Shown here one piece after another: positions 16,056 to 59,329 of a DNA stretch of 64,000 bases. The notes below the pieces were generated by a model that searched no databases, was not told the origin of the DNA, and worked only from the letters and a program-made list of their open reading frames with translations. Numbering within the stretch: the stretch's first letter is position 1; each line of letters begins with the position of its first letter. The stretch spans positions 2,432,001 to 2,496,000 of the forward strand of contig OY771587.1 of NCBI GenBank assembly GCA_963674825.1, given 5' to 3'. Source of the DNA: Candidatus Cloacimonadales bacterium (GTDB lineage: Bacteria; Cloacimonadota; Cloacimonadia; Cloacimonadales; JAIOQZ01). A program made the position numbers and the translations under genes.

Positions 16056-16071
16056 ATCTTAGGAGGATAGT

Positions 16072-17838
16072 TTGAGTCAGCTAATGATCAAAGTCGGAAT
16101 GGCGAGCTGCGGAGTAGCGGCTGGCGCTGGCGATGTCTGGAAAGCGATCGAAGAATACATGGCGAATAACGCTCCTGACGTAACGCTGGAAAAGACCGGT
16201 TGTATCGGAATGTGTTCTTACGAACCGCTGGTAGAGATGAAGTCTGCCGGTAAAGATATGATTACGTATGGCAACATCACCGCGGAAGAAGTTATCACCG
16301 CGATTGAAGCCCATCTCAATAATGACGCCGAGAAACTCGAATCTGTCGCGAAACGTATTATTCCTCGCGTCGAGACTCTCGATAAGCAATCCCGTATCGT
16401 TCTGCGCAACACAGGTATCATCGATCCTACATCGATTGACGAATACCTTGCGAACGACGGCTATAAAGCTCTTGAAAAAGCTTTGAAGAACATGACCCGT
16501 GAACAGGTGATCGATGAAATCAAGGCATCGGGCCTGCGCGGTCGTGGTGGAGCTGGTTTCCCAACCGGTCTCAAATGGCAATTCGCATATCAGGCGAAAG
16601 ACGACAAGAAATACATCGTCTGTAACGCGGACGAAGGCGATCCGGGCGCATTCATGGACCGTAGCGTTCTCGAAGGCGATCCCCACAGCGTGATCGAAGG
16701 TATGATCATCGGTGCATACGCAATCGGAGCCGACGAAGGCTACATCTACTGCCGTGCCGAGTACCCCATGGCGATCCGCCACCTGCTCATTGCCCTTGAA
16801 GCAGCCGAGAAACTCGGATATCTTGGCAAGAACATCATGGGAACCGGGTACAACTTCGAACTGCACATCAAGGAAGGCGCAGGCGCATTCGTGTGTGGCG
16901 AGGAAACAGCCCTGATGGCATCGATCGAAGGCAAGCGCGGTATGCCGCGTATCCGTCCTCCGTTCCCGGCACAGTCCGGTCTCTGGGGACATCCCACCAA
17001 TATTAACAACGTAGAGACCTTCGCGAATATCGCCTGGATCATCAACAACGGCGCTGCCAAGTATGCCAGCCTCGGAACCGAGAAGAGCAAGGGCACCAAG
17101 GTGTTCGCGCTTGCCGGTAAGATCAAGCACGCCGGCCTGGTGGAAGTTCCGATGGGAACTCCGCTTCGCGACGTGATCTACGAAGTTGGCGGCGGCATGC
17201 TCACCGAGAAGCCGTTCAAAGCCGTTCAGCTTGGCGGACCTTCGGGCGGTTGCGTTCCGAAGGAACTGCTCGACACCATCGTCGATTACGATTCCATCAC
17301 CAAAACGGGCGCTATCATGGGTTCCGGCGGTATGGTCGTCATGGACGAAAGCACCTGTATGGTCGATATCGCAAAGTTCTTCCTCAATTTCACCCAGAAC
17401 GAATCCTGCGGAAAGTGTACTTTCTGCCGCGTGGGAACCAAGCGCATGCTTGAAATCCTCCAACGCATCACCGAAGGTAAAGGCGAGATGGAAGACATCG
17501 ACAAGCTGTATGAGCTTTCCGAAAACATTCGCAAGACCTCTCTTTGCGGTCTGGGACAGACAGCCCCCAACCCGGTGCTGACCACCCTGCGCTATTTCAA
17601 ACATGAATACATTGCTCACATTCAGGACAAGAAATGCCCGGCGGGAGCTTGCCAAGCACTCATCAAGTTCGAAATCGATCCTGACAAGTGCGTCGGCTGT
17701 ACGCTTTGCGCACGCAGATGCCCTGTGAACGCCATTACCGGAACCGTCAAGCAACCGCACGTGATCGATCAGGACGCCTGTATCGGTTGCGGAGCCTGCG
17801 AAGCGGCATGTAAATTCGGCGCAGTGATTAAATCATAG
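16072..17838 (+). CDS. nuoF: NuoF/HydB-like FMN/NAD(H) subunit with Fe-S domains (StnB/BfuB-like)
   Basis: GLRGRGGAGFPTGLKW, NADEGDPGAFMDR, GAFVCGEET, GGPSGG, SCGKCTFCR and a C-terminal 2x[4Fe-4S] domain; TTG start behind AGGAGG. Confidence 0.93.
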   Translation: MSQLMIKVGMASCGVAAGAGDVWKAIEEYMANNAPDVTLEKTGCIGMCSYEPLVEMKSAGKDMITYGNITAEEVITAIEAHLNNDAEKLESVAKRIIPRVETLDKQSRIVLRNTGIIDPTSIDEYLANDGYKALEKALKNMTREQVIDEIKASGLRGRGGAGFPTGLKWQFAYQAKDDKKYIVCNADEGDPGAFMDRSVLEGDPHSVIEGMIIGAYAIGADEGYIYCRAEYPMAIRHLLIALEAAEKLGYLGKNIMGTGYNFELHIKEGAGAFVCGEETALMASIEGKRGMPRIRPPFPAQSGLWGHPTNINNVETFANIAWIINNGAAKYASLGTEKSKGTKVFALAGKIKHAGLVEVPMGTPLRDVIYEVGGGMLTEKPFKAVQLGGPSGGCVPKELLDTIVDYDSITKTGAIMGSGGMVVMDESTCMVDIAKFFLNFTQNESCGKCTFCRVGTKRMLEILQRITEGKGEMEDIDKLYELSENIRKTSLCGLGQTAPNPVLTTLRYFKHEYIAHIQDKKCPAGACQALIKFEIDPDKCVGCTLCARRCPVNAITGTVKQPHVIDQDACIGCGACEAACKFGAVIKS

Positions 17839-17849
17839 GAGAGTGGATC

Positions 17850-20800
17850 ATGATAAAAATCAAACTCAACAACAGAGAAATCATCACCGAAGCCGGTAAG
17901 ACTATATTGGAAGTCGCGCAGGAAAACGGAATCAAGATCCCAACCCTGTGCCATGATCCCGAACTCCAGCCCTACGGATCCTGCTGGGTCTGCGCTGTCG
18001 AAGTAAAAGGCGCTCGCGGATTCGTGACCGCTTGCGGTACCCGCGTCAGCGATGGCATGGAAGTTCAAACAGATACCAAGGAAGTTCACGCTGCGCGCAA
18101 GATGGCGCTCGAACTGCTGGTGTCCGACCACTACGCAGACTGCGAAGCCCCGTGCTCGGTCGCATGCCCGGATCACGTGGACATCCAGACCTACGTTGCT
18201 CATATCGCAAACGGTGATTACCACGAAGCGGTTCGCGTCATAAAGGAAAAGCTGCCGATGCCGCTTTCCATCGGACGCGTATGCCCGGCTTTCTGCGAAT
18301 CGGAATGCCGCCGCAAAATCGTTGACGAACCCATCGCTATTCGTCAGCTCAAGCGTCACGCTGCCGACTTCGATCTAGACGACTACTGGACATACGTTCC
18401 GGAGAAGATGCCCGAGACCGGTAACAAGGTCGCGATCGTCGGTGCCGGTCCTTCCGGCCTTACCTGCGGTTACTACCTCAGCAACGAAGGTCACGACGTA
18501 ACCGTTTTCGAAGCCTCTCCCAAAGCGGGTGGCTGGCTTCGGTACGGTATCCCGGAATACCGCCTGCCCAAGGCGATCCTCGATAAAGAAATCGAGCTGA
18601 TGTGTGCCAACGGCATGGAAATCAAATACAATGTGAAGATCGGCGAAGAGATCACCATGCAGCAACTCTGCACGGAATACGACGCCGTCTATCTGGCGCT
18701 GGGCGCACAGAACGCAGTTCCGATGCGTGTGACCGGAGCCGACCTCAATGGCGTCCTGCTGGGTGTCGATTTCCTCAAGGATTTCGTGCTCGGTAAGGAA
18801 ATCAACGTCGGCAAGAAAGTCGCTATCATCGGTGGTGGTAACACCGCTGTTGACTGTGCCAGAACCAGCCGTCGTCTCGGTGCCGACGTCACCATCGTTT
18901 ACCGCCGTACCCGCAAGGAAATGCCGGCGGAAGAGTATGAAGTCGATGCAGCGGACGAGGAAGGAATCAAGTTCTACATGCTGACCAATCCCGTGGAATT
19001 CCTGGGCGAAGACGGCCAGCTGAAGAAAGTGAAATTCGAGAAGATGGAACTGGGAGAACCGGACAGCAGCGGACGCCGTCGTCCTGTTCCGACCGGTGAA
19101 TACTTCGAAGAAGAGTTCGATACCGTGATCGCAGCGATTTCGCAGGCTCCGGACGTCGATTTCTTCGCGAAAGAAGAGAACTACGTCGATGGACGTCAGA
19201 TGCCGCTTACCCGCTGGCAGACTGCTGAAGTCGATGAAAATACCATGTACCTCGGATACGGTAACGTATTCGCCGGTGGCGACTTCCGCAGAGGTCCCGC
19301 AACCGCGATTGAAGCGATAGCCGATGGCCGTATCGCGTTCGAGCAGATCGATCGTTATCTGATGGGTCTGGAAATCGAAGCAGATAAGCCGAAATTCGAC
19401 AGCAAGAAAGAGAAGAAGCTTGCCGACGTATCACCGGAAGAATACGAACAGTACGAAAAGAAGCCTCGTGCCAAGATGCCGGAACTGGAAGCCGAAGTTC
19501 GCGCGACCAATTTCGAAGAAGTCGAAACAGGCTTTGTGGATGAAGACGCGCGCGCCGAAGCCGAGCGCTGCCTCGAATGCGGCTGCCAGGTCAATTCGAG
19601 CTGTGTGCTGCGCCAGTACTGTACTGATTACGAAGTGGACGTCGATCTGTTTGCCGGTTCCAAGAACAAGCATCCGATCGATCACAGCCACCCGTTCATC
19701 CTTCGCGACGCCAACAAGTGCGTCAACTGCGGTCGCTGTATCCGCACCTGCTCCGAGATTCAGGGCGCAGGCGTTCTGGGATACATCTTCCGTGGCTTCT
19801 CCAGCCTCGTAGCGCCGGAATTTGGCGAGAGCCTGACCTACACCACCTGCGAATCGTGCGGTAAGTGCGTCGCGGTGTGTCCGGTAGGCGCTCTCACCGA
19901 GCGTCAGGTCAACTACAAACTGCATCCGCATCCGGGTGAGAAATTCATCCAGAGCTGCGGTAACTGCGGCGTCGGCTGTACCATCGAAGTCAACACGCAG
20001 GTCGATCGCGTAGCCTTCATTCAGACTCCGGAAGAGGAAGGCTTCAATGGCCGCAATCTTTGCTTTAAGGGCAGATTCGGCTGGCAGGTCTTCGAAGATG
20101 ATGAGAAGCTCACCGAGCCGCTTCTTCGTAAAGATGGCAAGTACGAACCCATCTCTTGGATCGATGCGATGGAAGTCCTTCGCGAGAACCTCGAAAAGGC
20201 CGAGAACAGGTCGATCTATATCAGTGCGGACACAACCAACGAAGAGATGCTTCTGATGCAGGAAGTCGCGATGAACATCGAAGCGGAGATTGGCTCTATG
20301 TCGCTCATTCCTGACTTCACGGACGACATCGTGATGTACCATCGCTACCGTAAATCGTTCACCGAGATGGATGACGCTGAAGCGATCGTGATCGTTGGCG
20401 AGGTCAGCCACACACTGCGCACACTGGCACGTACCCAGCAGCGTAAGGGCAAAAAGCTCATCCTGATCAACAACAGCGATGCCGACTTCAACAACTTCGC
20501 GGATGCACACATCAAGGGCGAGGACTTCGACAAGGCTCTGGACGGTCTCTGCCAGAACAACTGCTGCTGCGACGACTGCCACTGTGGCGGTTCCGACAAG
20601 ATCGAACTCGATCTGCCGAATCGCACGCTGTTCTTCTACGACCGCACCGAACTTGGCGAAGATGTGATCCACAAAATCTGGACCGTTGCCACAGCTACCT
20701 GTAGCTTCGGCAAGGGCTCCGGCGTGATCCCGACCTCCAAATGGATGAACCTCAACGGTCTGATCCGCCTCGGATTCCAGCCGATGCCGGCGATCCAGGC

Positions 20801-21254
20801 CGATTTCGTCATACTCTATGGCGAATCACCGGATGCTGAACAGCAGAAAGCGCTCGAAGGCAGCGGATTCACCGTGTCGGTACACACGCATCACGTCTAT
20901 GATGCCGACCTCATCCTGCCGCAAGCTTCCTACCTGGAAACCGAAGGCTCCGTGTTCGCGGACGATCATCGTCTGAACTACTTCTACAATCCGAAGGACT
21001 CGAGTCTGTTCGACGAGATGGTGGAACTGTTCGCAGATCTCTTGATCATCCCGGAAGCACACGGCGAGAAGAGCTACTGGCTTGGTCGTACCCGCTACGT
21101 GCAGGAAACCGAACCTCAGATTCCGATCGAGGCGAAGGAACTGCATGAGTGGCTTGCGAACCTCACCGATCTCTCAACTTGCCCGATGCAGGTCAACACA
21201 GGTAAGCTGTCGCGCATCATGAAGCTGAAAAAAGAAACCGAGCAGGAAAGATAG
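17850..21254 (+). CDS. Fused [2Fe-2S] + GltD/NfnB-like FAD/NADP(H) + NuoG-like Fe-S and degenerate molybdopterin-fold protein (StnC/NfnA-like transhydrogenase large subunit)
   Basis: IPTLCH...CWVC...TAC; HYADCEAPCSVACP; GRVCPAFCESEC; GAGPSG; GGGNTAVD...YRRTR; CVNCGRCIRTC; CESCGKCVAVCP; CGNCGVGC...LCFKG. No H-cluster motifs. Confidence 0.85.
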   Translation: MIKIKLNNREIITEAGKTILEVAQENGIKIPTLCHDPELQPYGSCWVCAVEVKGARGFVTACGTRVSDGMEVQTDTKEVHAARKMALELLVSDHYADCEAPCSVACPDHVDIQTYVAHIANGDYHEAVRVIKEKLPMPLSIGRVCPAFCESECRRKIVDEPIAIRQLKRHAADFDLDDYWTYVPEKMPETGNKVAIVGAGPSGLTCGYYLSNEGHDVTVFEASPKAGGWLRYGIPEYRLPKAILDKEIELMCANGMEIKYNVKIGEEITMQQLCTEYDAVYLALGAQNAVPMRVTGADLNGVLLGVDFLKDFVLGKEINVGKKVAIIGGGNTAVDCARTSRRLGADVTIVYRRTRKEMPAEEYEVDAADEEGIKFYMLTNPVEFLGEDGQLKKVKFEKMELGEPDSSGRRRPVPTGEYFEEEFDTVIAAISQAPDVDFFAKEENYVDGRQMPLTRWQTAEVDENTMYLGYGNVFAGGDFRRGPATAIEAIADGRIAFEQIDRYLMGLEIEADKPKFDSKKEKKLADVSPEEYEQYEKKPRAKMPELEAEVRATNFEEVETGFVDEDARAEAERCLECGCQVNSSCVLRQYCTDYEVDVDLFAGSKNKHPIDHSHPFILRDANKCVNCGRCIRTCSEIQGAGVLGYIFRGFSSLVAPEFGESLTYTTCESCGKCVAVCPVGALTERQVNYKLHPHPGEKFIQSCGNCGVGCTIEVNTQVDRVAFIQTPEEEGFNGRNLCFKGRFGWQVFEDDEKLTEPLLRKDGKYEPISWIDAMEVLRENLEKAENRSIYISADTTNEEMLLMQEVAMNIEAEIGSMSLIPDFTDDIVMYHRYRKSFTEMDDAEAIVIVGEVSHTLRTLARTQQRKGKKLILINNSDADFNNFADAHIKGEDFDKALDGLCQNNCCCDDCHCGGSDKIELDLPNRTLFFYDRTELGEDVIHKIWTVATATCSFGKGSGVIPTSKWMNLNGLIRLGFQPMPAIQADFVILYGESPDAEQQKALEGSGFTVSVHTHHVYDADLILPQASYLETEGSVFADDHRLNYFYNPKDSSLFDEMVELFADLLIIPEAHGEKSYWLGRTRYVQETEPQIPIEAKELHEWLANLTDLSTCPMQVNTGKLSRIMKLKKETEQER

Positions 21255-47603: not shown

Positions 47604-48455
47604 ATGAGACCTTTACTTATAGCTTTTCTGCTGATACTTACGCTTGCTTTTACATCATGTACGATCAAGTTTGAAAACAGTGATGGCGATTCAAAAACAG
47701 ATTTCTGGAAAGGCAATTACTTTGTACAGGAGAACGTGAAGACTGTTCCGGAAAACCAGGATCACGTAGAAGCTGAGATCGAAGACGAATGGCACTCGTA
47801 TGATCTTCAGAATTTCACTGAAAGCTTCATGGCCTGGAATCTCAAGAGTCGCAAGGAGACACTGGAAGGATTCATGATGCATCCCCCCAAGCCACCGAGA
47901 CTCGCCGGACCGCACAATGGAATGGTGGCCACATGGGGCAACCGAAGGGATGACAGCCAGTTCAGCCTCAATAACGCTGTAAAAGGTATGGGATTCTGTC
48001 CGAAAGAATCAACCATCGAAGCCATGATCCAAAAAATGAATGACACCATGCAGGCGCCGTTTCAAGAGAAACTCGACGTGCTGATGGATTTCTATAACAA
48101 CGCAGATTCGCTCTTCTACCTCGATCGACAGATCTCTCTCGAACTCTACTCCACGCCCGAATTCGAAACGCAATCCTTTCTCAACCAGATGACCTATCCT
48201 GTCTCAACTGTCGTATTTCTGGACATCCCATCCTACAAACTGAAAACGATTACACGTCTACTGCATCCGCAAGATCCCAACCTGACCAGGCAAGAGAAGC
48301 TGCTGGTCGATTACGTCAATATCATTCACAGCTATTTCCATGGCGAATTCGACAAGGAATTCTCCGCTGTGATCTACTATGTCGTCGAAATCTACGATAA
48401 CTCACCCGGTAAACCCGACGCGCGCGGAACGCGCCTGATGCCTCCTCTGCCATAA
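47604..48455 (+). CDS. Hypothetical lipoprotein
   Basis: Lipobox LAFTSC; 283-aa ORF with its own promoter; family not confidently recognised. Confidence 0.7.
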   Translation: MRPLLIAFLLILTLAFTSCTIKFENSDGDSKTDFWKGNYFVQENVKTVPENQDHVEAEIEDEWHSYDLQNFTESFMAWNLKSRKETLEGFMMHPPKPPRLAGPHNGMVATWGNRRDDSQFSLNNAVKGMGFCPKESTIEAMIQKMNDTMQAPFQEKLDVLMDFYNNADSLFYLDRQISLELYSTPEFETQSFLNQMTYPVSTVVFLDIPSYKLKTITRLLHPQDPNLTRQEKLLVDYVNIIHSYFHGEFDKEFSAVIYYVVEIYDNSPGKPDARGTRLMPPLP

Positions 48456-48656: not shown

Positions 48657-49154
48657 ATGCAGCGATTGAAAGCGTTCATCCTGCTTTTTCTGTTTCTCTA
48701 TCTTGTGTGGATGCTGCTTACCGATTTCCATTCAGAGCAGGAGTGGATCGCGGGAGGGGTCGTATCGCTTGTATTGGCGGCGATTTTTGCGGCACGTGCA
48801 CAGGCGATCGGCAGGATCCATTTGAATCCCAAAGCGTTGGTTTATGGGATTCTGTATATTTTTGTGTTTGTATGGGAGCTGGTCCGATCGAATCTTGATG
48901 TTGCACACCGCGTGGTGATGCCCTCTCTTCCGATCAATCCCGGTATCGTCAAAGTGAAGACCAAGCTTCAGTCGCCACTTGGACGGACAGTTCTGGCCAA
49001 TTCGATCACGCTGACACCCGGCACGCTGACGGTAGAGGCTAAAGAGGATACGCTATACATCCACTGGATCGACGTAAGTGCTGGAGACATCAATGCCCAC
49101 ACACAGGCAATCGTGTCGAAATTCGAAAAGTACCTGGAGGTGATCTTTGGCTGA
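48657..49154 (+). CDS. mnhE: Na+/H+ antiporter subunit E (MnhE; MbhA/MbxA equivalent)
   Basis: SNLDVA, INPGIVKV, LANSITLTPGT, LYIHWIDV. Confidence 0.93.
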   Translation: MQRLKAFILLFLFLYLVWMLLTDFHSEQEWIAGGVVSLVLAAIFAARAQAIGRIHLNPKALVYGILYIFVFVWELVRSNLDVAHRVVMPSLPINPGIVKVKTKLQSPLGRTVLANSITLTPGTLTVEAKEDTLYIHWIDVSAGDINAHTQAIVSKFEKYLEVIFG

Positions 49155-49407
49155 AATAATATACCAGGTTGCGGCGTTGATCGCGCTGAGCGCACTAGCG
49201 CTGGCGATGATCCGCATGTTCAAAGGGCCCACGATTGCTGACCGCGTTGTGGCGCTCGATGCCATGACCATTATATCCATCTCGCTTCTGGCCTTTATAT
49301 CAGCGAGCGCATTGCGCATCGTTTACCTCGATGTGGCGCTGGTCTATGGGCTGATCAGCTTTGTTGGAGTTGTTGCGGTCGCGAGATATCTCGAGAGGGG
49401 GCTGTGA
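49147..49407 (+). CDS. mnhF: Antiporter subunit F (MnhF; MbxB equivalent)
   Basis: KGPTIADRVVALD...LDVALVYGLISFVG...ARYLE. Confidence 0.92.
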   Translation: MAEIIYQVAALIALSALALAMIRMFKGPTIADRVVALDAMTIISISLLAFISASALRIVYLDVALVYGLISFVGVVAVARYLERGL

Positions 49408-49742
49408 TGGCGATTATTGGCTCATTGATGACCCTATTCGGATCGATTTTCCTGCTTCTGGGAGCGCTTGGGCTGCTGCGTATGCCCGACGTTTATAATC
49501 GGATGCAGGCCGGAACCAAGGCGACGACTTTAGGTAGTATGCTGTTTTTAATCGGACTCAGCCTGGGCCGAGTGGAATGTATCTGCATCGGTCGTATGAT
49601 CCTCCTGATCGTGTTCTTGATCTTTACTAATCCGCTTTCTTCGCACGCGCTGGCACGGGCCGCCCATTACCTGGGCATTCCGCTGACGAAAAAGAGCGTT
49701 CGCGACGAGCTCGCTGAAGACGAGCAGGGAGAGCAGGCATGA
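49404..49742 (+). CDS. mnhG: Antiporter subunit G (MnhG; MbxC equivalent)
   Basis: GLLRMPDVYNRMQAGTKATTLG; TNPLSSHALARAA. Confidence 0.93.
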   Translation: MMAIIGSLMTLFGSIFLLLGALGLLRMPDVYNRMQAGTKATTLGSMLFLIGLSLGRVECICIGRMILLIVFLIFTNPLSSHALARAAHYLGIPLTKKSVRDELAEDEQGEQA

Positions 49743-49999
49743 CGACGATGAATTTGATCCTGTTGGTCGGGCTGGGTGTGTTGATGCTGGCAGCGGCCGT
49801 GTTTGCCGTTATATCAAAGAAAGTGCTCTCCGCAATTATCGCAGCGGGGGTTGTCAGCCTTCTGGCGAGTGTGATCTACCTGCTTCTGGCGTCACCGGAT
49901 GTGGCGATGACAGAAGCGGCCATAGGCAGCGGACTTACGACAGTGGTGTTTCTTTACGCCTACAGTAGAATGAAATCGGACAAGGAGGACAGACGGTGA
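49739..49999 (+). CDS. MbhD/MbxD (DUF4040) membrane subunit
   Basis: SPDVAMTEAAIGSGLTT. Confidence 0.88.
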   Translation: MTTMNLILLVGLGVLMLAAAVFAVISKKVLSAIIAAGVVSLLASVIYLLLASPDVAMTEAAIGSGLTTVVFLYAYSRMKSDKEDRR

Positions 50000-50691
50000 T
50001 AACCCGAATACTCGCATTTTTGGCGGTAATCGGCTTTGCGCTGATGCTGCTTCCATTAATCCATCAGATACTGCCCATGCAGGAACTGACGCCTGTGGCT
50101 GGAAGCTATGTGGCGAAGGGGCCGGACGAACTGGGCACACAGAATATTGTAACGGCTGTGGTGGTTACCTACCGTGGTCTGGATACGTTGGGAGAGGTTA
50201 CGGTGCTTTTCATCGCGACTGCCGGCGTGGGATTCCTCTTGGGTAGACGCAAAGAGAAGAAGCCGAAAAGAAAGTCGTCCGAAATCCTTCAGACGGGTGC
50301 GTCATTTCTGATCGCGCTCATCTTCATGTATGGCGTGTACGTGTTCATGCACGGGCATCTGACGCCGGGTGGCGGATTTCAGGGCGGCGTGGTAATCGCA
50401 ACGGGGATCCTCCTGATCATGCTTGCTGATGTGAACATGAAGTTCAACCACGGTCTGCTCCATTTTGTGGAGTCGATCTCGGGCGTGGGGTACGTGGTTT
50501 TGGGGCTTCTGGGGCTTTTGATGGCTTCCACAACGACCGGACTTGGCGACGGATTCCTCAACAACCGCTTCCTTCCGCTTGGAACATACGGCAGCCTCTT
50601 CAGCGCCGGAGCGATACCGCTTATCTACTCGCTGGTCGGGCTCAAGGTGGGTTCTGAACTCACCGGAATTCTGGACAACATGCAGGAATAG
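49996..50691 (+). CDS. mnhB: MnhB-like subunit (MbhE/F fusion; MbxF equivalent)
   Basis: NIVTAVVVTYRGLDTLGE; HGHLTPGGGFQGG; GLKVGSEL. Confidence 0.9.
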   Translation: MITRILAFLAVIGFALMLLPLIHQILPMQELTPVAGSYVAKGPDELGTQNIVTAVVVTYRGLDTLGEVTVLFIATAGVGFLLGRRKEKKPKRKSSEILQTGASFLIALIFMYGVYVFMHGHLTPGGGFQGGVVIATGILLIMLADVNMKFNHGLLHFVESISGVGYVVLGLLGLLMASTTTGLGDGFLNNRFLPLGTYGSLFSAGAIPLIYSLVGLKVGSELTGILDNMQE

Positions 50692-50700
50692 GATGATCTT

Positions 50701-51054
50701 ATGAATATAACCATACTTTTCGGAGCTATGCTGCTGATCATCGGGATCTGGGCGATGCTTACGCACAAGAACCTGATACGCATGATCATCGGATTCTCGC
50801 TGATGGACACCGGCATCCATGTAATCATGGTATCGGTAGGCTACATTGGTGGCAGGACAGCGCCCATTATCGACAAAGCGGTCAGCAAGGCCAATGCGCT
50901 TCACGAGGTGGTCGATCCCATCCCGTCAGCGCTGGTTCTCACCGCGATCGTTATCGGCCTGGCCGTGACGGCGCTAATGCTATCCTACGCCGTTCGCATG
51001 TATCAAAAAGGAAAATCACTCTCCATAGACGATTATCAGGAGACAAGATGGTGA
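50701..51054 (+). CDS. mnhC: MnhC/NuoK-like subunit (MbxG equivalent)
   Basis: NLIRMIIG; DPIPSALVLTAIVIGLA. Confidence 0.92.
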   Translation: MNITILFGAMLLIIGIWAMLTHKNLIRMIIGFSLMDTGIHVIMVSVGYIGGRTAPIIDKAVSKANALHEVVDPIPSALVLTAIVIGLAVTALMLSYAVRMYQKGKSLSIDDYQETRW

Positions 51055-54000
51055 ATCCCATATACATATTCGTAATTGCATTGGGTGGCGCATTCCTGAT
51101 CGGACCGGCTGATCGTCTGGGCAAGCAAGCGTCGGTCTGGCTGACAACCTTGATCCTGGCGCTCATGACCTGGATTGCCGGATCGTGGTTCTTCGCGATT
51201 TCCGGTGGTGCCGAATCCCAGCAAATATTTACCGCCGGGCTACGTCCACCCGTATCTATCAACCTATTTATGGGCTACAAAGAGGCTCTGATTCTGTTTC
51301 TATCCAACGCTGCCGGTCTCCTGGGCGTTTTTGCGCTGCGTAAGCGGTTCAATGAGCTGCCTGCCTACGCGATGATGCTCTATGTGGCGATGCTCGCCGG
51401 TGTGAACGGTATCGTGATGACGCGCGACCTCTTCAACCTGTTCGTGTTCATCGAGATCAACTCGATCGCGACCTATGCTTTGATCGCGCTGGAGCCAAGC
51501 CGCAAAGCGCTCTCTGCCGGATTCAAGTATATGATTGCCGGTGGAATCGCTTCCATCCTCTTCCTGCTTGGTACGGTGTACATCTATCGCTTGAGTGGTA
51601 CGCTGAATATCGACCAGCTCTCCGGGATGAACATCGCGCTTCTTGGAAAGGCTGGTTGGCTGGCGATTTTCATGCTACTGATGTCGATTCTGATCGAACT
51701 GAAGCCTTTCCCCGCTAACGGGTGGGCGCTGGATGTCTATCAGAGCGCGCATGGTGGTGTATTAGCGCTGATCTCGTCCGCAAACGCGGGTGCAATGTTC
51801 TACGCGCTCTACAAGCTTATGCCCGTGATTGGCGATGGCTTTCTGAATCTGATTGCGGTCGTGGGATTGGTGACGTTCTTTTTCTCGAATTTGTTGGGAA
51901 CGCGACAATTCAATTTCAAGCGATTGCTAGGCTATAGCTCCGTGGGGCAGATTGGCCTTATGATGGGCGTTTATGCTCTGATGACCAGACTCGGTTACGA
52001 TGAGGGCTTGATCCTGATCATCACGGGTGCGATCTTCATCAACCACTTCCTGGCAAAGGCCGGACTATTCTGGCTTTCCGAGACAATCGAGGGTGAGAAT
52101 CTCTCCGATTGGAGTGCCATCCGGGAGCGTCCCGAGAAGTTGTTTGGCTTTGGTGCGCTGCTCATCGCGCTGGCCGGTTTTCCGCCGTTCCCCACATTCT
52201 GGGCGAAGTGGAACCTTGTGCTGCGCCTGATGGACAGTGGCTCCTATGTAGCGCTGGTGGCGATTCTGCTCGGGTCGCTGTTCGAGATCTTCATGTTGTT
52301 GCGGTGGTTTGGACTTGCACTCAAGATCGATACTGCAAAACAGGCGGAGGATAACCACGGACTTGAAATCCCTGCCCGGCTCTTCATGCTAGCGCTGGTG
52401 GTTGTGGGACTTCGTGCGAGTTGCTACTTCATCCACGGTAATTTCGTGATCGACACCATCGCGCTTCCGTCTTGCGTGCCAGTGATGGCTCCACTGGTGG
52501 TGGGTGCGTTCCTCTATCTGGTCGATTGGTTGCCAATGAAGATGAAGGCAGGCCTGACGATTGTCCTGACGGGAATATACTTCTATTTTGTGCTCCCCGC
52601 GATCCAGCCGCTTCCGATGCTATTCGCGGCGATCTTCGCGCTGGGTGGCATGCTGATAACCTTTGCGAGTATGAATCGCGAGATCAATTCGCGCGGTTTC
52701 TACCCACTTCTCATCATGATGATCACCTCGCTGATCAACCTCACGATTTCCGAATCCACGTTGGAGTTCTTCACCGCGTGGGAGTTTATGACGCTGAGCT
52801 CGTATCTGCTACTGATTCGCGGCAAGAATGCAGGTGAACACGCGCTTCGCTACGTGATGTTTTCCATGGGAGCCGCGTTCCTCATCATGAGCGGTTTTGC
52901 CGTGATGTACTCGACGACGGGCGTTACCGACTTCTACAGTCTGTTGCTTGGTCGCTATGGTTTCAGTTGGGGCTTTGTCCTGGTTGGACTCGGCATGTTG
53001 ATCAAGATGGGCGGCATAGGATTCCACGTGTGGTTACCGGGTGCTTACGCGGAAGCCGAGGACGATATTTCGACATTCTTTTCCGCGATCCTCAGCAAGG
53101 CCGCGGTTTACGGTCTTATGCTGGTGGCGCTTATCTACACGATCAACTACCACGGTGGATTCGACTTCCGCAATGTTCTGGGATGGCTGGGTGTGCTGAC
53201 GGCTGTTTTCGGCGCGCTGATGGCAGTTTTCCAGGAAGATATCAAGCGACTATTGGCCTACTCGAGCATGAGCCAGTTGGGATACATCGTACTGGCGCTG
53301 GCGATGGCGGATCATCTGGGCTGGGTGACGGCACTTTACATAACCGTATTGCACGTGATGTTCAAAGGGATGCTCTTCCTTGCGGTTGCCGGTATCGTGC
53401 AGGCAACAGGTACGCACCTTATGTACCGCATGGGCGGACTGATCAAGAAAATGCCGCTGAGCTTCATTTCGGTGCTGATCGCGATTATTGCTGTCTCGGG
53501 CGTACCGCCGTTGGCTGGATTCGGGGCCAAGTGGATGCTCTATACGAGTCTGATCCAGAAGGGATGGTATCTGCAAGCGGGTGTTGCGTTCTTCTCGAGC
53601 GCGATCGCGTTCCTGTACCTATTCCGGCTGATCCACAGCATGTTCCTGGGGCAGCTCAAGTATGAGAACCGCGAGGTGAAAGAAGCTTCTCCGTGGTTGA
53701 TCGCACCGCAGTTTGTGCTGCTGATGGCAATCATGGCGGTCTCGACGTTCCCGTCGCTCCTGCTCAAGCCGCTGAGCGCGATGCTTCCTGAGTCGATTCC
53801 GGGAACGATCGTCTGGCAGGGCGGCACGATGCTCTCGAGCCTGGGCTACTGGAATGGAACGCTGGTCATGTGGGTGACGATGGGTGTGTTTGGCCTGGTG
53901 CTGCTGTGGCTGATCCTCTGGCTACGAAATGTGAAGAAAGTCGGACAATTTAACATCGTGTATTCTGCCGAGAAGCCCATGCTTCCCGAGACGACCCACT

Positions 54001-54209
54001 ATGCATATAACTTCTTCCCCTTCTATCAGAAGGCGTTGGGTGGACTGGTCAAGCCGCGTGCGACATCGTTCTGGAATGGTGTGACGGAGTGGACGGCGTC
54101 GACAGCCGGCGTGATTCGTCAGCTTTACACCGGTAACGCACAGACGTACGCGATGCAGATATTCCTCTATATTATCGTACTTTATCTCGTGTTTGGAGTT
54201 GGATTATGA
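51048..54209 (+). CDS. Tandem fusion of two MnhD/NuoL-M-N-type proton-translocating modules (MbxH + MbxH')
   Basis: Two antiporter cores: DLFNLFVFIEI...KRLLGYSSVGQIG and EFFTAWEFMT...HVWLPGAY...KRLLAYSSMSQLG...GVPPLAGFGAKW. Confidence 0.9.
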   Translation: MVNPIYIFVIALGGAFLIGPADRLGKQASVWLTTLILALMTWIAGSWFFAISGGAESQQIFTAGLRPPVSINLFMGYKEALILFLSNAAGLLGVFALRKRFNELPAYAMMLYVAMLAGVNGIVMTRDLFNLFVFIEINSIATYALIALEPSRKALSAGFKYMIAGGIASILFLLGTVYIYRLSGTLNIDQLSGMNIALLGKAGWLAIFMLLMSILIELKPFPANGWALDVYQSAHGGVLALISSANAGAMFYALYKLMPVIGDGFLNLIAVVGLVTFFFSNLLGTRQFNFKRLLGYSSVGQIGLMMGVYALMTRLGYDEGLILIITGAIFINHFLAKAGLFWLSETIEGENLSDWSAIRERPEKLFGFGALLIALAGFPPFPTFWAKWNLVLRLMDSGSYVALVAILLGSLFEIFMLLRWFGLALKIDTAKQAEDNHGLEIPARLFMLALVVVGLRASCYFIHGNFVIDTIALPSCVPVMAPLVVGAFLYLVDWLPMKMKAGLTIVLTGIYFYFVLPAIQPLPMLFAAIFALGGMLITFASMNREINSRGFYPLLIMMITSLINLTISESTLEFFTAWEFMTLSSYLLLIRGKNAGEHALRYVMFSMGAAFLIMSGFAVMYSTTGVTDFYSLLLGRYGFSWGFVLVGLGMLIKMGGIGFHVWLPGAYAEAEDDISTFFSAILSKAAVYGLMLVALIYTINYHGGFDFRNVLGWLGVLTAVFGALMAVFQEDIKRLLAYSSMSQLGYIVLALAMADHLGWVTALYITVLHVMFKGMLFLAVAGIVQATGTHLMYRMGGLIKKMPLSFISVLIAIIAVSGVPPLAGFGAKWMLYTSLIQKGWYLQAGVAFFSSAIAFLYLFRLIHSMFLGQLKYENREVKEASPWLIAPQFVLLMAIMAVSTFPSLLLKPLSAMLPESIPGTIVWQGGTMLSSLGYWNGTLVMWVTMGVFGLVLLWLILWLRNVKKVGQFNIVYSAEKPMLPETTHYAYNFFPFYQKALGGLVKPRATSFWNGVTEWTASTAGVIRQLYTGNAQTYAMQIFLYIIVLYLVFGVGL

Positions 54210-55153
54210 GTCATGTTCTGATCCTTATTGGCAATGCCCTTCTAACCCTGTTTGTCGTGATGAACTGGGGCCTGATCATGGGCGGTATGGTGCGCAAGAT
54301 CGTCGGTCGAGTGCACGGTAGATACGGCCCACCCATCTGGCAGCCGTACATCGATATTATCAAGACGCTCGGAAAACGTACCAGCGTGATCCACGGCGTG
54401 ATGTTTTTCCTTGGACCGGTCTTCCGTCTGGCCGGCGGTATCGGAACGCTGATGTTTATTCCGGTACTGTTCCATTCATCGGTATTTGCGAACTTTAGCT
54501 TTTCTGGCGACCTTCTACTGGTGATGTATTTCATTTTCTTCGGTCAGCTCGGAATGGCGCTGGGAGCTGGCGAAAGTGGGCACCCATACAGCGCGATGGC
54601 CGTGGGAAGAGGTCTGGCGCAGATGACCGCATTCGAAGTGCCATTTGCACTTTCAGTGATCTCGCTGGCCATCCAGTACAAGACGCTTTCCGTGACCGGT
54701 ATCGTGGCAGCGCAGCAGGGTGGATTGCTCCACTGGACGCTGTTTACCAACCCGGTTGCGACCATCACCGCGATCATTGCCATGCTGGGGATGAATATGC
54801 ATTCCCCGTTCGATATCGTGCTTGCACCGCAAGAGATTCCCATCGGGCCGCCGACGGAGTTCCAGAGCAGTTTCCTGGGCCTTTTGCAGACCAACCGTGC
54901 TATTTTCACAGGCGCGAAACTGGTGCTGTTCATGAACCTCTATCTGGGTGGTTCGTCGATCGGAAACGGTGGCTTCGCAGGCTATGCGATGGCGATTATC
55001 ACCATGATGGCGAAGACGTTCGGGCTGTATATGATCTCGGTGTTTGTCGGCGTGGCATACCCGAGGTTCCGCACCGAGCAATCGATCCGGTTCTTCCTCG
55101 GCGTGCCGACCGTATTGGGCATTCTCGCCATACTGATTTTCTGGATCTGGTAG
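54206..55153 (+). CDS. nuoH: NuoH-like membrane anchor (MbxM equivalent)
   Basis: RKIVGRVHGRYGPPIWQPYIDIIK; PFD...EIPIGPPTEF; YPRFRTEQ. Confidence 0.9.
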   Translation: MSHVLILIGNALLTLFVVMNWGLIMGGMVRKIVGRVHGRYGPPIWQPYIDIIKTLGKRTSVIHGVMFFLGPVFRLAGGIGTLMFIPVLFHSSVFANFSFSGDLLLVMYFIFFGQLGMALGAGESGHPYSAMAVGRGLAQMTAFEVPFALSVISLAIQYKTLSVTGIVAAQQGGLLHWTLFTNPVATITAIIAMLGMNMHSPFDIVLAPQEIPIGPPTEFQSSFLGLLQTNRAIFTGAKLVLFMNLYLGGSSIGNGGFAGYAMAIITMMAKTFGLYMISVFVGVAYPRFRTEQSIRFFLGVPTVLGILAILIFWIW

Positions 55154-55162
55154 GAGTATAAC

Positions 55163-55804
55163 ATGGACGAAGAAATCAAGAAACCTTACGAAGAAATGGA
55201 CATAGACGAGCTGATCAAATCACAGCCGACAGATCCGGTGCTGTACTGTCAGGATTTACCCAAACCGAGTAAACCGCTGGGCATATATATGGAGAAGTTT
55301 CTCAACTGGGCGCGCGCGAATTCGCTGTGGTTCCTGGGATTTGGAACCGGTTGCGGCGCGGTGGAGCTGCGTCCGCTGATGACAGCACGTTTCGATGTGT
55401 ATCGCTACGGAATCGCCGGAAGACCTACGCCAAGGCAGTCGTCGGTATTCGTCATCGGCGGGTACGCTTCGGTGAAGACGATCAAGCGCATTGTGCGTAG
55501 CTACGAGCAGATGCAGGGGCCCAAGTTCGTGATCGGACTAGGAAGCTGCACGATTAACGGCGGTATGTATTGGGACAGCTACAACACCATCAACCGCCTG
55601 GATCACTATATCCCGGTGGATGTATATATCGCGGGATGTATGCCACGTCCTGAAGCGCTTATCGCGGGATTCGAGAAGCTCAAGCAACTGATAAAAGAAG
55701 GGAAGGCTGAAGGCGCGAACCATTACGCCGAGAACTTCGAGTGGTACAAAGCGAATCAGAAGAAAATCATAAAAGACTGGAATATGCCAGACTACAATTG
55801 GTAA
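55163..55804 (+). CDS. nuoB: NuoB-like Fe-S small subunit (MbxJ equivalent)
   Basis: WARANSLW..FGTGCGAVE; GSCTINGGMYWDSY; VDVYIAGCMPRPEA. Confidence 0.9.
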   Translation: MDEEIKKPYEEMDIDELIKSQPTDPVLYCQDLPKPSKPLGIYMEKFLNWARANSLWFLGFGTGCGAVELRPLMTARFDVYRYGIAGRPTPRQSSVFVIGGYASVKTIKRIVRSYEQMQGPKFVIGLGSCTINGGMYWDSYNTINRLDHYIPVDVYIAGCMPRPEALIAGFEKLKQLIKEGKAEGANHYAENFEWYKANQKKIIKDWNMPDYNW

Positions 55805-55809
55805 AGACT

Positions 55810-56340
55810 ATGCAAAGATTGATTGAAGAGATTTCTCAGCGCTATCCGGTAACCGATTCGAAGGTATCGCGTCCGGATCAGTCGTGGATCACCGTTCCGA
55901 AGGAGAAGCTGGTGGATATCCTGACGTGGCTCAAGAGCCAGAAGGAATTTACGCACCTTGCATTTTTCACCGTGGTGGACTACCTCGAGCAGGGCAAATT
56001 CCAGCTAACCTACATGCTTCACAACTACAAGACCCACAAAGACCTGGGTGTGCGGGTGCTAATCGACCGCGAGAACGCGACGATGGAATCGATCCATCAC
56101 CTATGGGAGCACGCCCATACGTTCCAGCGCGAATGGCGGGAGATGTTCGGGATCGATTTCCCGGGCAGTCCGCGTGTGCATGAACCGATGATTTTGGAAG
56201 GATGGGACGGACCACCGCCTTATCGCAGAGACTTCGACACGAAGAAGTACTCGGAAGAGACCTACTTTCCGCGTCCTGGCCGGGAAACGCACGATCCGCG
56301 CGAGCACATGAAAAAGAAGCTTTATCCGGAGGAATCATGA
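55810..56340 (+). CDS. nuoC: NuoC-like subunit (MbxK equivalent)
   Basis: REWREMFGIDFPG..PMILEGW..PPYRRDF. Start set at ATG 55810, 5 nt after the nuoB stop. Confidence 0.88.
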   Translation: MQRLIEEISQRYPVTDSKVSRPDQSWITVPKEKLVDILTWLKSQKEFTHLAFFTVVDYLEQGKFQLTYMLHNYKTHKDLGVRVLIDRENATMESIHHLWEHAHTFQREWREMFGIDFPGSPRVHEPMILEGWDGPPPYRRDFDTKKYSEETYFPRPGRETHDPREHMKKKLYPEES

Positions 56341-57473
56341 TCAGGCCGAAACAGGATATCGATCTCAGGTCTGGAAAATACCTGAAGATCTGGCAAGGAC
56401 CGAATCATCCGGGTATCACCGGTAACATGTCGCTTGAACTGACGGTTTGCGGTGACGAGATTGTGGAAGCGACCACGCATGTGGGCTATCTGCATCGCGG
56501 ATTCGAAAAGCTCATGGAACGCAGAACGTACATCCAGTGCTTTCCGATCGTGTGTCGTATCGCGGTTCCGGAGCCCGATTACAACGAGTATTGCTTCACC
56601 GCCGCAACGGAAGAATTGGGCGGTATCGAAATCCCCGAGAGGGCTGTCTGGCTTCGTATGCTGATTCTGGAGATGTCGCGTCTGGCGAGTTTCCTGATGT
56701 GGATCGGCGGTCAGGCAGGAGCTTTCGGAATGGGAACGATCGGGCAGTGGGCGGTTGCACATCGCGACTTCATGCTGGATCTCTTCGAAGAGCTGACAGG
56801 TGGCCGCGTGTACCATATGTACATTATTCCCGGTGGCGTTCGCGGACCGCTTCCCGAAGGGTTCGAAGGGCGCGCTCGCAAGGTGCTGGACAAGGTGGAA
56901 AAGCTTCTCGCCGAGATCGAGATCGTAATGTTCCACAGCGTTGTTTTCAAGATGCGCGCGAAGGATTTAGGCATCATTACGCAGGACATGGTCGATCAAT
57001 ATGGGCTTGTCGGCCCTAACGCCCGTGCTACGGGCCTGGCGCGTGATATTCGCAAGGATCAACCGTACCTGTACTACGACCAGCTTGATTTCGAGGTGGT
57101 GACCGATACCAAGTCGGATGCCTACAACCGTGCGTATCTGCGTTGGCGCGAGATGCATCAGGCAGTCGGATTGATTCGCCAGATTCTGGATCGGATACCT
57201 GATAAGGGTGACTTCCACGTGAAGGTTCCGAACGTGCTGCACTGGAAGATTCCGGCAGGTGAGGCATACGTCAAGGCTGAGAGCACGCGCGGCGAATATG
57301 GATTCTACATTGCCGCCGACGGAACGGAGTACCCCAGACGCGTCTATGTGCGCGGACCAAGCTATTCAACGGCGATACCCTTCATGGAAGACCTTCTGCG
57401 GGGTGTCAACATTGCGGATGTGGCGGGACTGAACGTATCGCTGCACACCTATCCGCCCGAAATAGAACGATAA
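56337..57473 (+). CDS. nuoD: NuoD-like large subunit (MbxL equivalent) lacking NiFe ligands
   Basis: GPNHPGITGNM; GYLHRGFEKLME; RIAVPEPD; ESTRGEYG; RGPS; ends HTYPPEIER. Start at ATG 56337 overlaps the nuoC stop (ATGA) behind GGAGGA. Confidence 0.9.
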   Translation: MIRPKQDIDLRSGKYLKIWQGPNHPGITGNMSLELTVCGDEIVEATTHVGYLHRGFEKLMERRTYIQCFPIVCRIAVPEPDYNEYCFTAATEELGGIEIPERAVWLRMLILEMSRLASFLMWIGGQAGAFGMGTIGQWAVAHRDFMLDLFEELTGGRVYHMYIIPGGVRGPLPEGFEGRARKVLDKVEKLLAEIEIVMFHSVVFKMRAKDLGIITQDMVDQYGLVGPNARATGLARDIRKDQPYLYYDQLDFEVVTDTKSDAYNRAYLRWREMHQAVGLIRQILDRIPDKGDFHVKVPNVLHWKIPAGEAYVKAESTRGEYGFYIAADGTEYPRRVYVRGPSYSTAIPFMEDLLRGVNIADVAGLNVSLHTYPPEIER

Positions 57474-57484
57474 CGGGAGTCGAA

Positions 57485-59257
57485 ATGAGTTTACGAGATA
57501 TACTGTCACCGTTTTACGTCTGGAAACGCGCGTTTTCCAAGCCGTTTGTCGTAGATAAACCGCTGGATGAACGTCCCGGCGCACCGCGCTACCGTGGATT
57601 TCACAAGAACGACATGGAGAAGTGCATTGGCTGCGGAACCTGCTCGGATATCTGCCAGAATGCGGCGATCGATATGGTGCCCGTGGAAGGACAGGAAACC
57701 ACCAAAGGCGACAGCGGACTGCGTCCGATGATCGATTACGGTCGTTGCTGCTGGTGCGCGCTGTGTGTTGATGTCTGCACGACCGGTTCGCTGACGATGT
57801 CCAACGAATATACCTGGGTGGATACGGACGCGGACGTTTTCCGGTTTGTCCCTGGTGCTGAAGAAAAGCCGTGGGATAGCGCGGAGCTTGGTTACCAACG
57901 GGCTGATAATTATTCATTATTGCATCATGACCGCATTTCGATGCCAATGGAAGATTTCGATGAGGGGATTCATTCATTCGTGGAGATGGTCAAGGGCTAT
58001 TCCAGAGAACAGGCGCAGAAAGAAGCAGATCGGTGCGTGCAGTGCGGAATTTGCGTAGCTGCCTGCCCTGCCCATATGGATATCCCGGACTATATCAAGG
58101 CAGTGCGGGAGGGTGATCTGGAGGAGGGGCTCCGGTTACTCTACCGCACCAATCCGATGAGTGCAACCTGTGGTCGTATATGTACGCATAAGTGCGAAGA
58201 AAGCTGCGCGATGGGGCATCTGGGCGATCCGATCTCCATTCGCTGGCTCAAACGCTACATCATCGACCAGATTCCCGATAACGAGTTCGGCAGGATTTTG
58301 AACGAGGAATTTGCGCCCAACGGCAAGAAAGTCTCCATTATCGGTGGCGGTCCCGGCGGTTTAGCGGCCGCGTACTACCTCATCCTGATGGGATACGAAG
58401 TCACGATCTACGAGTCACGTTCGAAGGCCGGCGGTATGCTGCGTTACGGCGTTCCGGAGTACCGGCTTCCCGAGCTTCAGCTCGACAGAGACATCGACCA
58501 TGTCGTGAAGCTGGGCGTGAAGATGATGTACAATACACGCGTCGGCAAGGATATTGACTTCAAGAAACTGCATGAGGAATCAGACGCGATTTTCATCGCG
58601 ATCGGATTGGATCAGCCTTATTACATGGGCATCGAAGGCGAGGACCTGCCGGGTGTGATTCCCGGACTGAAGCTTCTGGACGACGTAACCGAAGGACGTG
58701 ACCCGGATATCGGAAAACGAGTGGCTGTCATCGGTGGCGGTAATGTGGCGATGGATGCCTGTCGGGTGTCACGGCGTCTGGGCTGCGATGTGACGCTGCT
58801 CTACCGCAGACGTGAGGAAGATATGCCGGCGGACGAAGAGGAAATCCACGATTCGAAGATGGAAGGCGTGAACATCGTCACGCAGGCTATCCCCATCAAA
58901 ATCGAGAAGGGCGACCCGCTGACGTTCGTATGGGGCGAGGCAAAGATGGTCGATCAGGGTCCCGGTAAACGGCCGAATCCCGAGCTGATGGAAGACCGAA
59001 TCCACAACGATCCGTTCGATACGATTATCAGTGCGATTGGTCAAGGTGGCGATTTCCGATTTATACCCGAGAATCTCGCAGAATCCGTGAAGGTCAAGCG
59101 CGGTAAGATATTCACTTATGAATGGAACCAGACCGGCGATGCAAAAGTCTTCGCTGGTGGGGATATCGCCAACAGTACCGCCGACGCGATCAGCGCGATC
59201 GCGGATGGTCATCGTGCTGCCAAGGGCATTGACATGCTACTGAAAGGCAAATTATAG
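57485..59257 (+). CDS. NuoI/MbxN-like 2x[4Fe-4S] domain fused to a GltD/NfnB-like FAD/NADP(H) oxidoreductase
   Basis: YRGFH...CIGCGTCSDIC...DYGRCCWCALCVDVC, then RCVQCGICVAACP, CGRICTHKCEESC, GGGPGG, GGMLRYGVPEYRLP, GGGNVAMD...YRRR, FAGGD. Confidence 0.9.
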   Translation: MSLRDILSPFYVWKRAFSKPFVVDKPLDERPGAPRYRGFHKNDMEKCIGCGTCSDICQNAAIDMVPVEGQETTKGDSGLRPMIDYGRCCWCALCVDVCTTGSLTMSNEYTWVDTDADVFRFVPGAEEKPWDSAELGYQRADNYSLLHHDRISMPMEDFDEGIHSFVEMVKGYSREQAQKEADRCVQCGICVAACPAHMDIPDYIKAVREGDLEEGLRLLYRTNPMSATCGRICTHKCEESCAMGHLGDPISIRWLKRYIIDQIPDNEFGRILNEEFAPNGKKVSIIGGGPGGLAAAYYLILMGYEVTIYESRSKAGGMLRYGVPEYRLPELQLDRDIDHVVKLGVKMMYNTRVGKDIDFKKLHEESDAIFIAIGLDQPYYMGIEGEDLPGVIPGLKLLDDVTEGRDPDIGKRVAVIGGGNVAMDACRVSRRLGCDVTLLYRRREEDMPADEEEIHDSKMEGVNIVTQAIPIKIEKGDPLTFVWGEAKMVDQGPGKRPNPELMEDRIHNDPFDTIISAIGQGGDFRFIPENLAESVKVKRGKIFTYEWNQTGDAKVFAGGDIANSTADAISAIADGHRAAKGIDMLLKGKL

Positions 59258-59281
59258 ATTCGTACAAATCCACTCAAAAAG

Positions 59282-59312
59282 AAAAACGGCTCCTAGCACT
59301 GGGAGCCGTTTT
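59282..59312. terminator. Bidirectional intrinsic terminator between the mbx-like operon and tetR
   Basis: AAAAACGGCTCCTAG-CA-CTGGGAGCCGTTTT, with A- and T-runs on either side. Confidence 0.85.
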
Positions 59313-59329
59313 CTATGAAGGTTGAATAA

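Follow-up and report, generated by a model that had tools for sequence, protein, structure and literature searches.

Complex I carries NuoEFG at its electron-entry end. From which donor, and to which acceptor, do electrons pass in a complex-I-like assembly that lacks these subunits and ends in a flavoprotein fusion? The question is raised by an operon of a Candidatus Cloacimonadales bacterium (GenBank assembly GCA_963674825.1, contig OY771587.1, positions 2,432,001 to 2,496,000; hereafter the window, meaning the whole 64,000-nucleotide stretch that was analyzed). Positions 48657-59257 of the window are filled by 12 plus-strand open reading frames (ORFs) with intergenic spacing of -8 to +11 nt. 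Their order is MnhE, MnhF, MnhG, MbhD, MbhE/MnhB, MnhC, antiporter, NuoH, NuoB, NuoC, NuoD, and NuoI-GltD, and Pfam and NCBIfam scans find no nuoE/F/G within the 12-gene operon. An earlier note on this DNA, made from its letters, had described just such a set of tightly coupled genes in Mbx/Mbs order, and the domain scans and ORF spacing bear it out. The earlier note further held that the complex has no known catalytic site, that its substrate site has moved to the flavin domain, and that it acts as an ion-pumping ferredoxin:NADP+ oxidoreductase. Our analysis leads elsewhere. The operon encodes an intact complex of the membrane-bound sulfane reductase (MBS)/Mbx family, comprising a Mrp-derived arm (subunits A, B, C, D, E, G, H, and H') together with M, J, K, L, and N. 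We propose that it functions as a NADPH:sulfane (S-S) oxidoreductase that pumps Na+/H+, a reading to which we assign a probability of about 0.55. NADPH as the electron input, originally raised as an alternative, fits the evidence best.

The J subunit site and the membrane arm

The MBS of Pyrococcus furiosus (formerly Mbx; PDB 6U8Y; PMC7684303) has the same gene order as the operon. Like the present complex, MBS combines two antiporter-like units with a Mrp Na+ module, possesses a three-Cys J cluster, and lacks the quinone His/Tyr and a NiFe site. Among solved structures, MBS is the closest relative in all five subunit searches (J, L, M, N, and H/H'). Specifically, J matches chain 6u8y_J at 219 bits, versus 132 for the next structure and 81 for MbhJ; L matches 6u8y_L at 305 bits, versus 217 for Thermus Nqo4 and 131 for MbhL (HMMER); and the NuoI-like domain matches the MBS N chain at 90 bits, versus 57 for the next. 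Chain 6u8y_M is the sole match to the NuoH-like subunit better than E 1e-20, and only chains 6u8y_X and 6u8y_H match the antiporter-like protein better than E 1e-45.

In MBS, the catalytic site is a three-Cys cluster on the NuoB-like J subunit, not on L (PMC7684303). This proximal [4Fe-4S] cluster of MbsJ is held by C28, C93, and C123; its open iron is required for trisulfide reduction, and removing the unique iron abolishes activity. The MBS mutants C25A and C85A/C385A, by contrast, retain activity. In the J subunit studied here, C64, C129, and C159 align with the three MbsJ ligands, and Gly61 stands in place of C25. Of 58 relatives, all that have a residue at the ligand positions keep the Cys (56/56, 58/58, and 58/58, respectively), and the neighboring position is Gly in 56/56; the second Cys that complex I has there never occurs. 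At position 61, 53 relatives have Gly and 3 have Cys. By sequence, the proximal cluster has three Cys only, with neither a fourth nor an adjacent Cys. Because MBS works at the J three-Cys cluster, all of whose ligands remain here, we count the catalytic site as intact: the operon retains a MBS-type three-Cys [4Fe-4S] site on J that is predicted to be catalytic. The view that no known site is present was thus mistaken.

J C25, L C85, and L C385, the three Cys missing from this complex, are the ones that MBS can do without and stay active. In L, Ala76 and Tyr372 occupy the positions of P. furiosus MbsL C85 and C385, Val77 and Thr28 replace Thermus Tyr87 and His38 of the quinone site, and alignments reveal no NiFe CxxC pair of the kind found in group 4 [NiFe] hydrogenase (MBH/Ech) large subunits. 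The earlier note had read the NuoD-like subunit correctly in all these respects. The step from there to a substrate site relocated to the flavin is not supported, given the dispensable Cys and the intact J site. The operon likewise does not show the marks of complex I, Fpo, or NDH, namely adjacent Cys-Cys N2 ligands, His38/Tyr87, and the nuoAJK order. Across 64 relatives, 53 have Cys at the position of L C85, 8 have Ala, and 3 are gapped; at that of C385, 51 have Tyr and 13 have Cys; Cys73, a new chamber residue, is present in 51 of 61. Because L C85/C385 and J C25 are dispensable in MBS and variable within the clade, we do not treat these vestigial residues as defining the MBS/Mbx family.

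The refuting check that the earlier note had itself set leans against that note, both in the structure searches above and in the phylogeny of L. In a 33-row IQ-TREE, L falls within a 10-row clade (100/100) that is sister (93/87) to the Thermotogae MbxL group, and the surrounding 22-row clade (97/97) leaves out NiFe large subunits, FpoD, and NuoD. A 152-row FastTree agrees. These trees were built without MbsL from P. furiosus or other Thermococcales; P. furiosus MbsL is instead the top HMMER match.

The membrane arm departs from MBS in that H and H' are fused and that MbsH K250/H330, MbsH' H336, and MbsM E104/E193 are not retained. The H' half keeps E579, K653, K684, and K828 (alignment to MbsH'). 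The H half keeps E136 and E217 but lacks a Lys where MbsH has K250, and Lys occurs there in 0/43 related H domains (51048-52500 region of the window); Lys219, two residues past the TM7 Glu, is invariant among 43 related H domains. Possibly, the H half is a degraded pump with lower stoichiometry, or its charge has shifted. An eroded charge axis in the NuoH-like subunit was considered and rejected: although MbsM E104/E193 are missing, E144, E210, and E218 are invariant in 54/54 relatives, so the axis is rearranged, not lost. Cation pumping, as supposed earlier, is supported as likely. Two points had been missed, the MbsH-MbsH' fusion and the three-Cys cluster motif of J.

The fused flavin module and its NAD- and NADP-type relatives

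The N subunit differs from MbsN by a 460-aa FAD/NADP(H) module. The fusion contains two CxxCxxCxxxC motifs followed by Fer4_20 and Pyr_redox_2 domains (Pfam), and the GGGNVA and YRRR motifs lie at residues 417-422 and 440-443. Eight Cys in the NuoI-like part and eight in the GltD part are nearly invariant among relatives; the fusion is thus predicted to bind four [4Fe-4S] clusters, and J a fifth. The protein matches NCBIfam PRK13984 over its full length at 715 bits, under the cut-off of 946. An AlphaFold model of it as a single unit (47 sequences) has pLDDT 87.4 and pTM 0.83. With this model as query, Foldseek pairs the last 470 residues with NfnI, NfnA, StnC, and GltD, the best match being the NfnI large subunit (TM score 0.89 over the target); no solved protein spans the whole fusion by Foldseek, the best TM score by query being 0.71. 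The module resembles NfnB, GltD, DsrL, and NfnA(Bfu) in fold, FAD and YRR motifs, and two [4Fe-4S] clusters. It differs from NfnB in having Lys256 where NfnB has a Glu ligand (alignment).

In MBS, electrons enter at MbsN, which holds the medial and distal clusters (PMC7684303). Because the flavin module is fused to an MbsN-like domain with distal and medial clusters, we place it at the electron-entry end. In the homologous DsrL and NfnB enzymes, a YRR motif signals NADP(H) use; in DsrL, residues of the S/T-L-E type signal NAD(H) use (PMC7596348). The YRR mark of NADP(H)-specific GltD/NfnB/DsrL-2 modules, which follows the second Rossmann strand, is found at residues 440-442 of the fusion, and a preference of the fused module for NADP(H), as judged from this motif, is supported. 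Canonical flavin bifurcation by the fusion is unlikely because the host genome encodes no NfnA partner; the sole PF10418 match in that genome is pyrK of the pyr operon, and bifurcation with NfnA was rejected as a candidate.

How widespread is this arrangement? The survey of the fusion that the earlier note had recommended covers 72 related loci drawn from a genome collection. Because 45/72 keep the same gene order from mnhE to the fusion (the majority of the remainder are cut by contig ends), the operon is not a chance arrangement. The two nearest loci, Cloacimonadales-labelled, show 89-90% identity. The J subunit occurs in 56/151 sampled genomes of the phylum, and relatives exist in spirochaetes, Bacteroidales, and proteobacteria as well. 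The nucleotide site reads YRRR in 30 loci and xLE in 37, and is broken, cut, or non-member in 5. NADP specificity therefore stands for this copy and fails for the family, which comprises NADP-type and NAD-type modules with differing neighbor genes. Specifically, among 63 loci with at least 600 nt downstream, nfnAB lies directly 3' of 8, all YRRR, and a rubrerythrin-like gene lies 3' of 23 xLE loci; a DHOD-like gene lies 3' of 7 xLE Bacteroidales loci. In a tree of the nucleotide-binding domain, a long branch parts YRRR from xLE, whereas a tree of the FeS/FAD part keeps both together, a conflict hinting at a nucleotide-domain swap. In the Marinitoga-type loci (L056, L057, and L066), H and H' are unfused, J C25 and the two L Cys are present, and the motif is NAD-type; the present operon, unlike these, is an NADP-type member of a derived clade in which H and H' are fused. 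In spirochaete loci L052, L054, L055, L056, L060, and L062, an ArsR/SmtB regulator lies near the operon; its weak BigR match (E 4e-13, under the cut-off) suggests a possible sulfane-sulfur sensor.

The architecture is widespread and already described, and this copy is an example of the bacterial Mbx/MBS-GltD kind, not a new system. Degli Esposti 2015 (PMC4758237) describes mbx-like operons, often ending in rubrerythrin, in which a gltD-related flavoprotein is the site of NAD(P)+ reduction. The gltD-bearing operons of Thermotoga and proteobacteria (PMC4758237, PRK13984) share the design seen here, and relatives of the present operon share their terminal rubrerythrin gene; the earlier note had already pointed to gltD-like genes in Thermotogae Mbx clusters. 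That paper takes the flavoprotein as a replacement for NuoI, whereas the present fusion joins it to a NuoI-like domain that is intact. The Fd:NAD(P)+ label is repeated for Mesotoga (10.1101/322537) and Thermoanaerobacter (PMC3608648). The examined parts of PMC10356935, PMC8165549, PMC11636981, PMC10451490, and PMC6405883 contain nothing on a NuoI-GltD fusion. The open-access literature searched contains neither the NADPH-input reading, nor the NAD/NADP split, nor, in keeping with the earlier note, any biochemistry of a GltD-fused member; Wu 2018 (PMC6204914) and Schut 2013/2016 may cover them.

Electron flow, energetics, and competing explanations

The notion is that NADPH, with the NfnABC/Stn-like transhydrogenase of the same window as its likely source, would reduce the FAD of the GltD/NfnB module. 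This Bfu-type cluster (15594-21251, plus strand) encodes NuoE-like, NuoF-like, and 1134-aa NuoG/GltD-like proteins and carries a YRR motif. From the FAD, electrons would travel along four [4Fe-4S] clusters, first the pair in the GltD module and then the pair in the NuoI-like domain, before reaching the three-Cys J cluster. There, in the J/L/M chamber, the open iron would split an S-S bond, either in polysulfide or in one of its organic counterparts, and this cleavage would drive the Mrp-derived arm to export H+/Na+. The genes, their order, homology, cluster ligands, and the NADP-type motif are grounded in data; cofactor wiring, direction, acceptor, and pumping are what we infer. Calculated with potentials from PMC9304861 and energies from PMC7684303, transfer from NADPH (-380 mV) to polysulfide yields about -22 kJ/mol, or 1.5 ions at 150 mV. 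In Thermotoga maritima, mbxA, predicted to belong to a ferredoxin-fed sulfur reductase, rises 4.36-fold on sulfur (Liang et al. 2022, PMC9431562). If the proposal is right, MBS-type sulfur respiration extends beyond hyperthermophiles, and a complex-I-like pump exists with a pyridine-nucleotide input unlike NuoEFG, in NAD and NADP versions.

Several observations weigh against a NADPH-fed sulfane reductase. Such an enzyme would have half the driving force that ferredoxin gives MBS, and NAD-type members (37/72 loci) would obtain -3 to -11 kJ/mol to polysulfide, below one ion. No sulfur gene flanks the operon, the host genome encodes no NrfD/PsrC, and in alphaproteobacterial carriers the operon closes with the rubrerythrin-like gene and no sulfur gene (23 loci). 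Mesotoga mbx expression is weak on thiosulfate (10.1101/322537), and a measured activity for a GltD-fused member is missing from the literature searched. The branch separating L from Thermotogae MbxL is long (0.85), and the J/L/M chamber is altered (Tyr372, Cys73); the acceptor may therefore differ. Finally, a prediction that alphaproteobacterial carriers have no ferredoxin economy failed: POR_N (2-oxoacid:ferredoxin oxidoreductase) is found in 18/20 of them, versus 20/201 in a baseline made up of genomes from one carrier's family, only 1 of which has J (related genomes are not independent in such counts). RnfC occurs in 0/20 alphaproteobacterial carriers; this and the frequency of POR_N suit a ferredoxin-consuming role. 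The richness of these carriers in pyruvate:ferredoxin oxidoreductase (PFOR) keeps open a role for ferredoxin.

What form could that role take? In a dual-input sulfane reductase, ferredoxin would feed the NuoI-like clusters, as it does in MBS, and the flavin would serve as an additional entry point for NADPH or let excess electrons drain to NADP+. The N domain retains both ferredoxin-type MbsN clusters, NADH by itself is too weak for NAD-type members, and the second electron in the proposed MBS cycle reduces a 3+ cluster (PMC7684303), presumably a high-potential step. PFOR-rich carriers point the same way, and in three Celeribacter genomes a nifJ-type PFOR and a GltD-like gene lie 3-5 kb upstream of the operon. 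However, that GltD-like neighbor (PRK12771 above cut-off in 2/3 scanned) could turn the PFOR's electrons into NAD(P)H, and the proximity fits either a PFOR to NAD(P)H to complex route or direct ferredoxin input. A shared wire would, moreover, leak ferredoxin electrons to NADP+ unless gated, and residues 40-110 of the NuoI-like domain are net acidic (5 K/R versus 10 D/E by a crude count), which would hardly favor docking of an acidic ferredoxin. We regard dual input as unlikely. A two-donor pump, the boldest form of dual input, in which ferredoxin and NAD(P)H each deliver one electron per S-S cleaved and confurcate at the site-differentiated [4Fe-4S] cluster to drive Na+/H+ export, would explain the fused flavin, the PFOR link, and pumping by NADH-type members; we consider it very unlikely. 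The ion-pumping ferredoxin:NADP+ oxidoreductase favored in the earlier note, a NADP-specific Rnf analogue, descends from an older Mbx hypothesis that was applied to a gltD-bearing operon in 2015 (PMC4758237). This precedent in print, the NADP-type motif, sufficient energy (-19 to -23 kJ/mol for ferredoxin at -476 to -500 mV), the alphaproteobacterial carriers with PFOR and without RnfC, and the nfnAB genes adjoining 8 loci, which could recycle NADPH, all speak for it. Nonetheless, homology suggests that both substrates would engage the cluster chain at its distal end, so that electrons could bypass the J/L/M chamber and the loops by which this family couples redox to pumping; the conserved three-Cys J site would be left unexplained; and the same idea for Pyrococcus Mbx has been superseded by direct polysulfide reduction (PMC7684303). 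Rnf, a Fd:NAD+ oxidoreductase with no homology to the operon, is separately encoded in the host (C, D, G, A, and B above cut-offs; E outside the scan), and RnfC is present in 146/151 phylum genomes, including 54/56 J carriers. Because of this co-occurrence, the complex is no stand-in for Rnf, and the host Rnf and NfnABC/Stn-like enzyme already connect ferredoxin, NADH, and NADPH. A ferredoxin:NADP+ pump is, in our estimate, distinctly unlikely.

Other alternatives keep NADPH and the J site and change the acceptor or the direction. The open iron could reduce an organic disulfide or persulfide, a peroxide-linked carrier, or a lipophilic acceptor. The changed chamber residues (Cys73, and Tyr in place of C385, in most relatives), the rubrerythrin-like gene that ends the operon in 23 loci, and the oxygen-respiring alphaproteobacterial genera among the hosts agree with such an acceptor, and a higher potential would remove the energy problem of NAD-type members. 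Against it, no candidate acceptor gene lies near the operon, quinone residues and pathway are not found, and MBS already takes organic trisulfide (PMC7684303), so that this quite improbable explanation overlaps with sulfane reduction. Quinone itself was rejected as acceptor: L lacks the quinone residues, and the check for quinone genes, suggested earlier alongside that for rnf, detects no pathway in the 99.6% complete host genome. Specifically, MqnA/D have 0 matches, and no quinone prenyltransferase is found, the sole UbiA-family gene being of the geranylgeranylglycerol-phosphate transferase (archaeal-lipid) type. In reverse flow, the ion gradient would push electrons from sulfide or short polysulfide at J uphill to NADP+. 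The gap of about 22 kJ/mol equals one to two ions, the homologous DsrL enzymes run in both directions (PMC7596348), members occur in Chromatiaceae metagenome-assembled genomes, and a Riftia symbiont co-expresses an Mrp-Mbx, which may or may not carry the fusion, with reductive tricarboxylic acid cycle genes (PMC11636981). Conversely, MBS is demonstrated in the reductive direction only, and the host appears fermentative (FeFe hydrogenases with 4 domain matches, Rnf, and PFOR, beside 1 NiFe gene) and has a cheaper source of NADPH, making reverse flow a very doubtful proposition.

Operon parts and other loci of the host

Features of the Mbs-type operon and its downstream flank (positions in the window; aa, amino acids)
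Feature	Position	Strand	Evidence
MbsA/MnhE-like subunit, 165 aa	48657..49154	+	PF01899 E 9e-41
MbsB/MnhF-like subunit, 86 aa	49147..49407	+	PF04066
MbsC/MnhG-like subunit, 112 aa	49404..49742	+	PF03334; TIGR01300 above cut-off
MbsD/MbhD-like subunit, 86 aa	49739..49999	+	PF13244
MbsE, MbhE + MnhB domains, 231 aa	49996..50691	+	PF20501, PF04039
MbsG/MnhC-like subunit, 117 aa	50701..51054	+	PF00420; MnhC models (NCBIfam)
MbsH + MbsH' fused antiporter-like pump subunit, 1053 aa	51048..54209	+	two PF00361 stretches; 6u8y_X, 6u8y_H
MbsM/NuoH-like membrane anchor, 315 aa	54206..55153	+	6u8y_M match
MbsJ/NuoB-like subunit, 213 aa, predicted catalytic site	55163..55804	+	6u8y_J match; ligand conservation
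MbsK/NuoC-like subunit, 176 aa, start ATG 55810 (read from sequence)	55810..56340	+	PF00329
MbsL/NuoD-like subunit, 378 aa, start ATG 56337	56337..57473	+	6u8y_L match; tree
MbsN(NuoI)-GltD/NfnB fusion, 590 aa; 4 predicted [4Fe-4S], FAD, NADP(H)-type site YRRR	57485..59257	+	
GC hairpin between operon and convergent tetR	59282..59313	.	A run + T run on its flanks

The terminator said to close the operon is borne out in part. A strong hairpin is present (the folding energy of 59271-59325 is -21.8 kcal/mol), and the terminator scan calls it on the minus strand only. The hairpin is probably a bidirectional terminator, which the Mbs operon would then use too. Upstream of the operon lies a 283-aa lipoprotein-like ORF (47604-48455, plus strand) with no Pfam or NCBIfam match; it adjoins the operon in 1/72 loci, its own.

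Elsewhere, the host has two rhodanese domains, and a CoA-disulfide-reductase-like protein fused to rhodanese (host C1:382043-383701; under the TIGR03385 cut-off) is a possible soluble persulfide reductase. A six-gene Hyf/Ehr-type complex (C1:1855300-1862500) has a large subunit without the N-terminal NiFe Cys pair. A Nqr-like cluster (C1:2928400-2932300; B, C, D, and F scanned) has no nqrA beside it, in this genome without a detected quinone pathway. Finally, the ATP synthase rotor genes (C1:1332400-1333500) specify two c subunits, one built of a single hairpin and the other of three, with an E-S-T motif that we take to be a Na+ signature.

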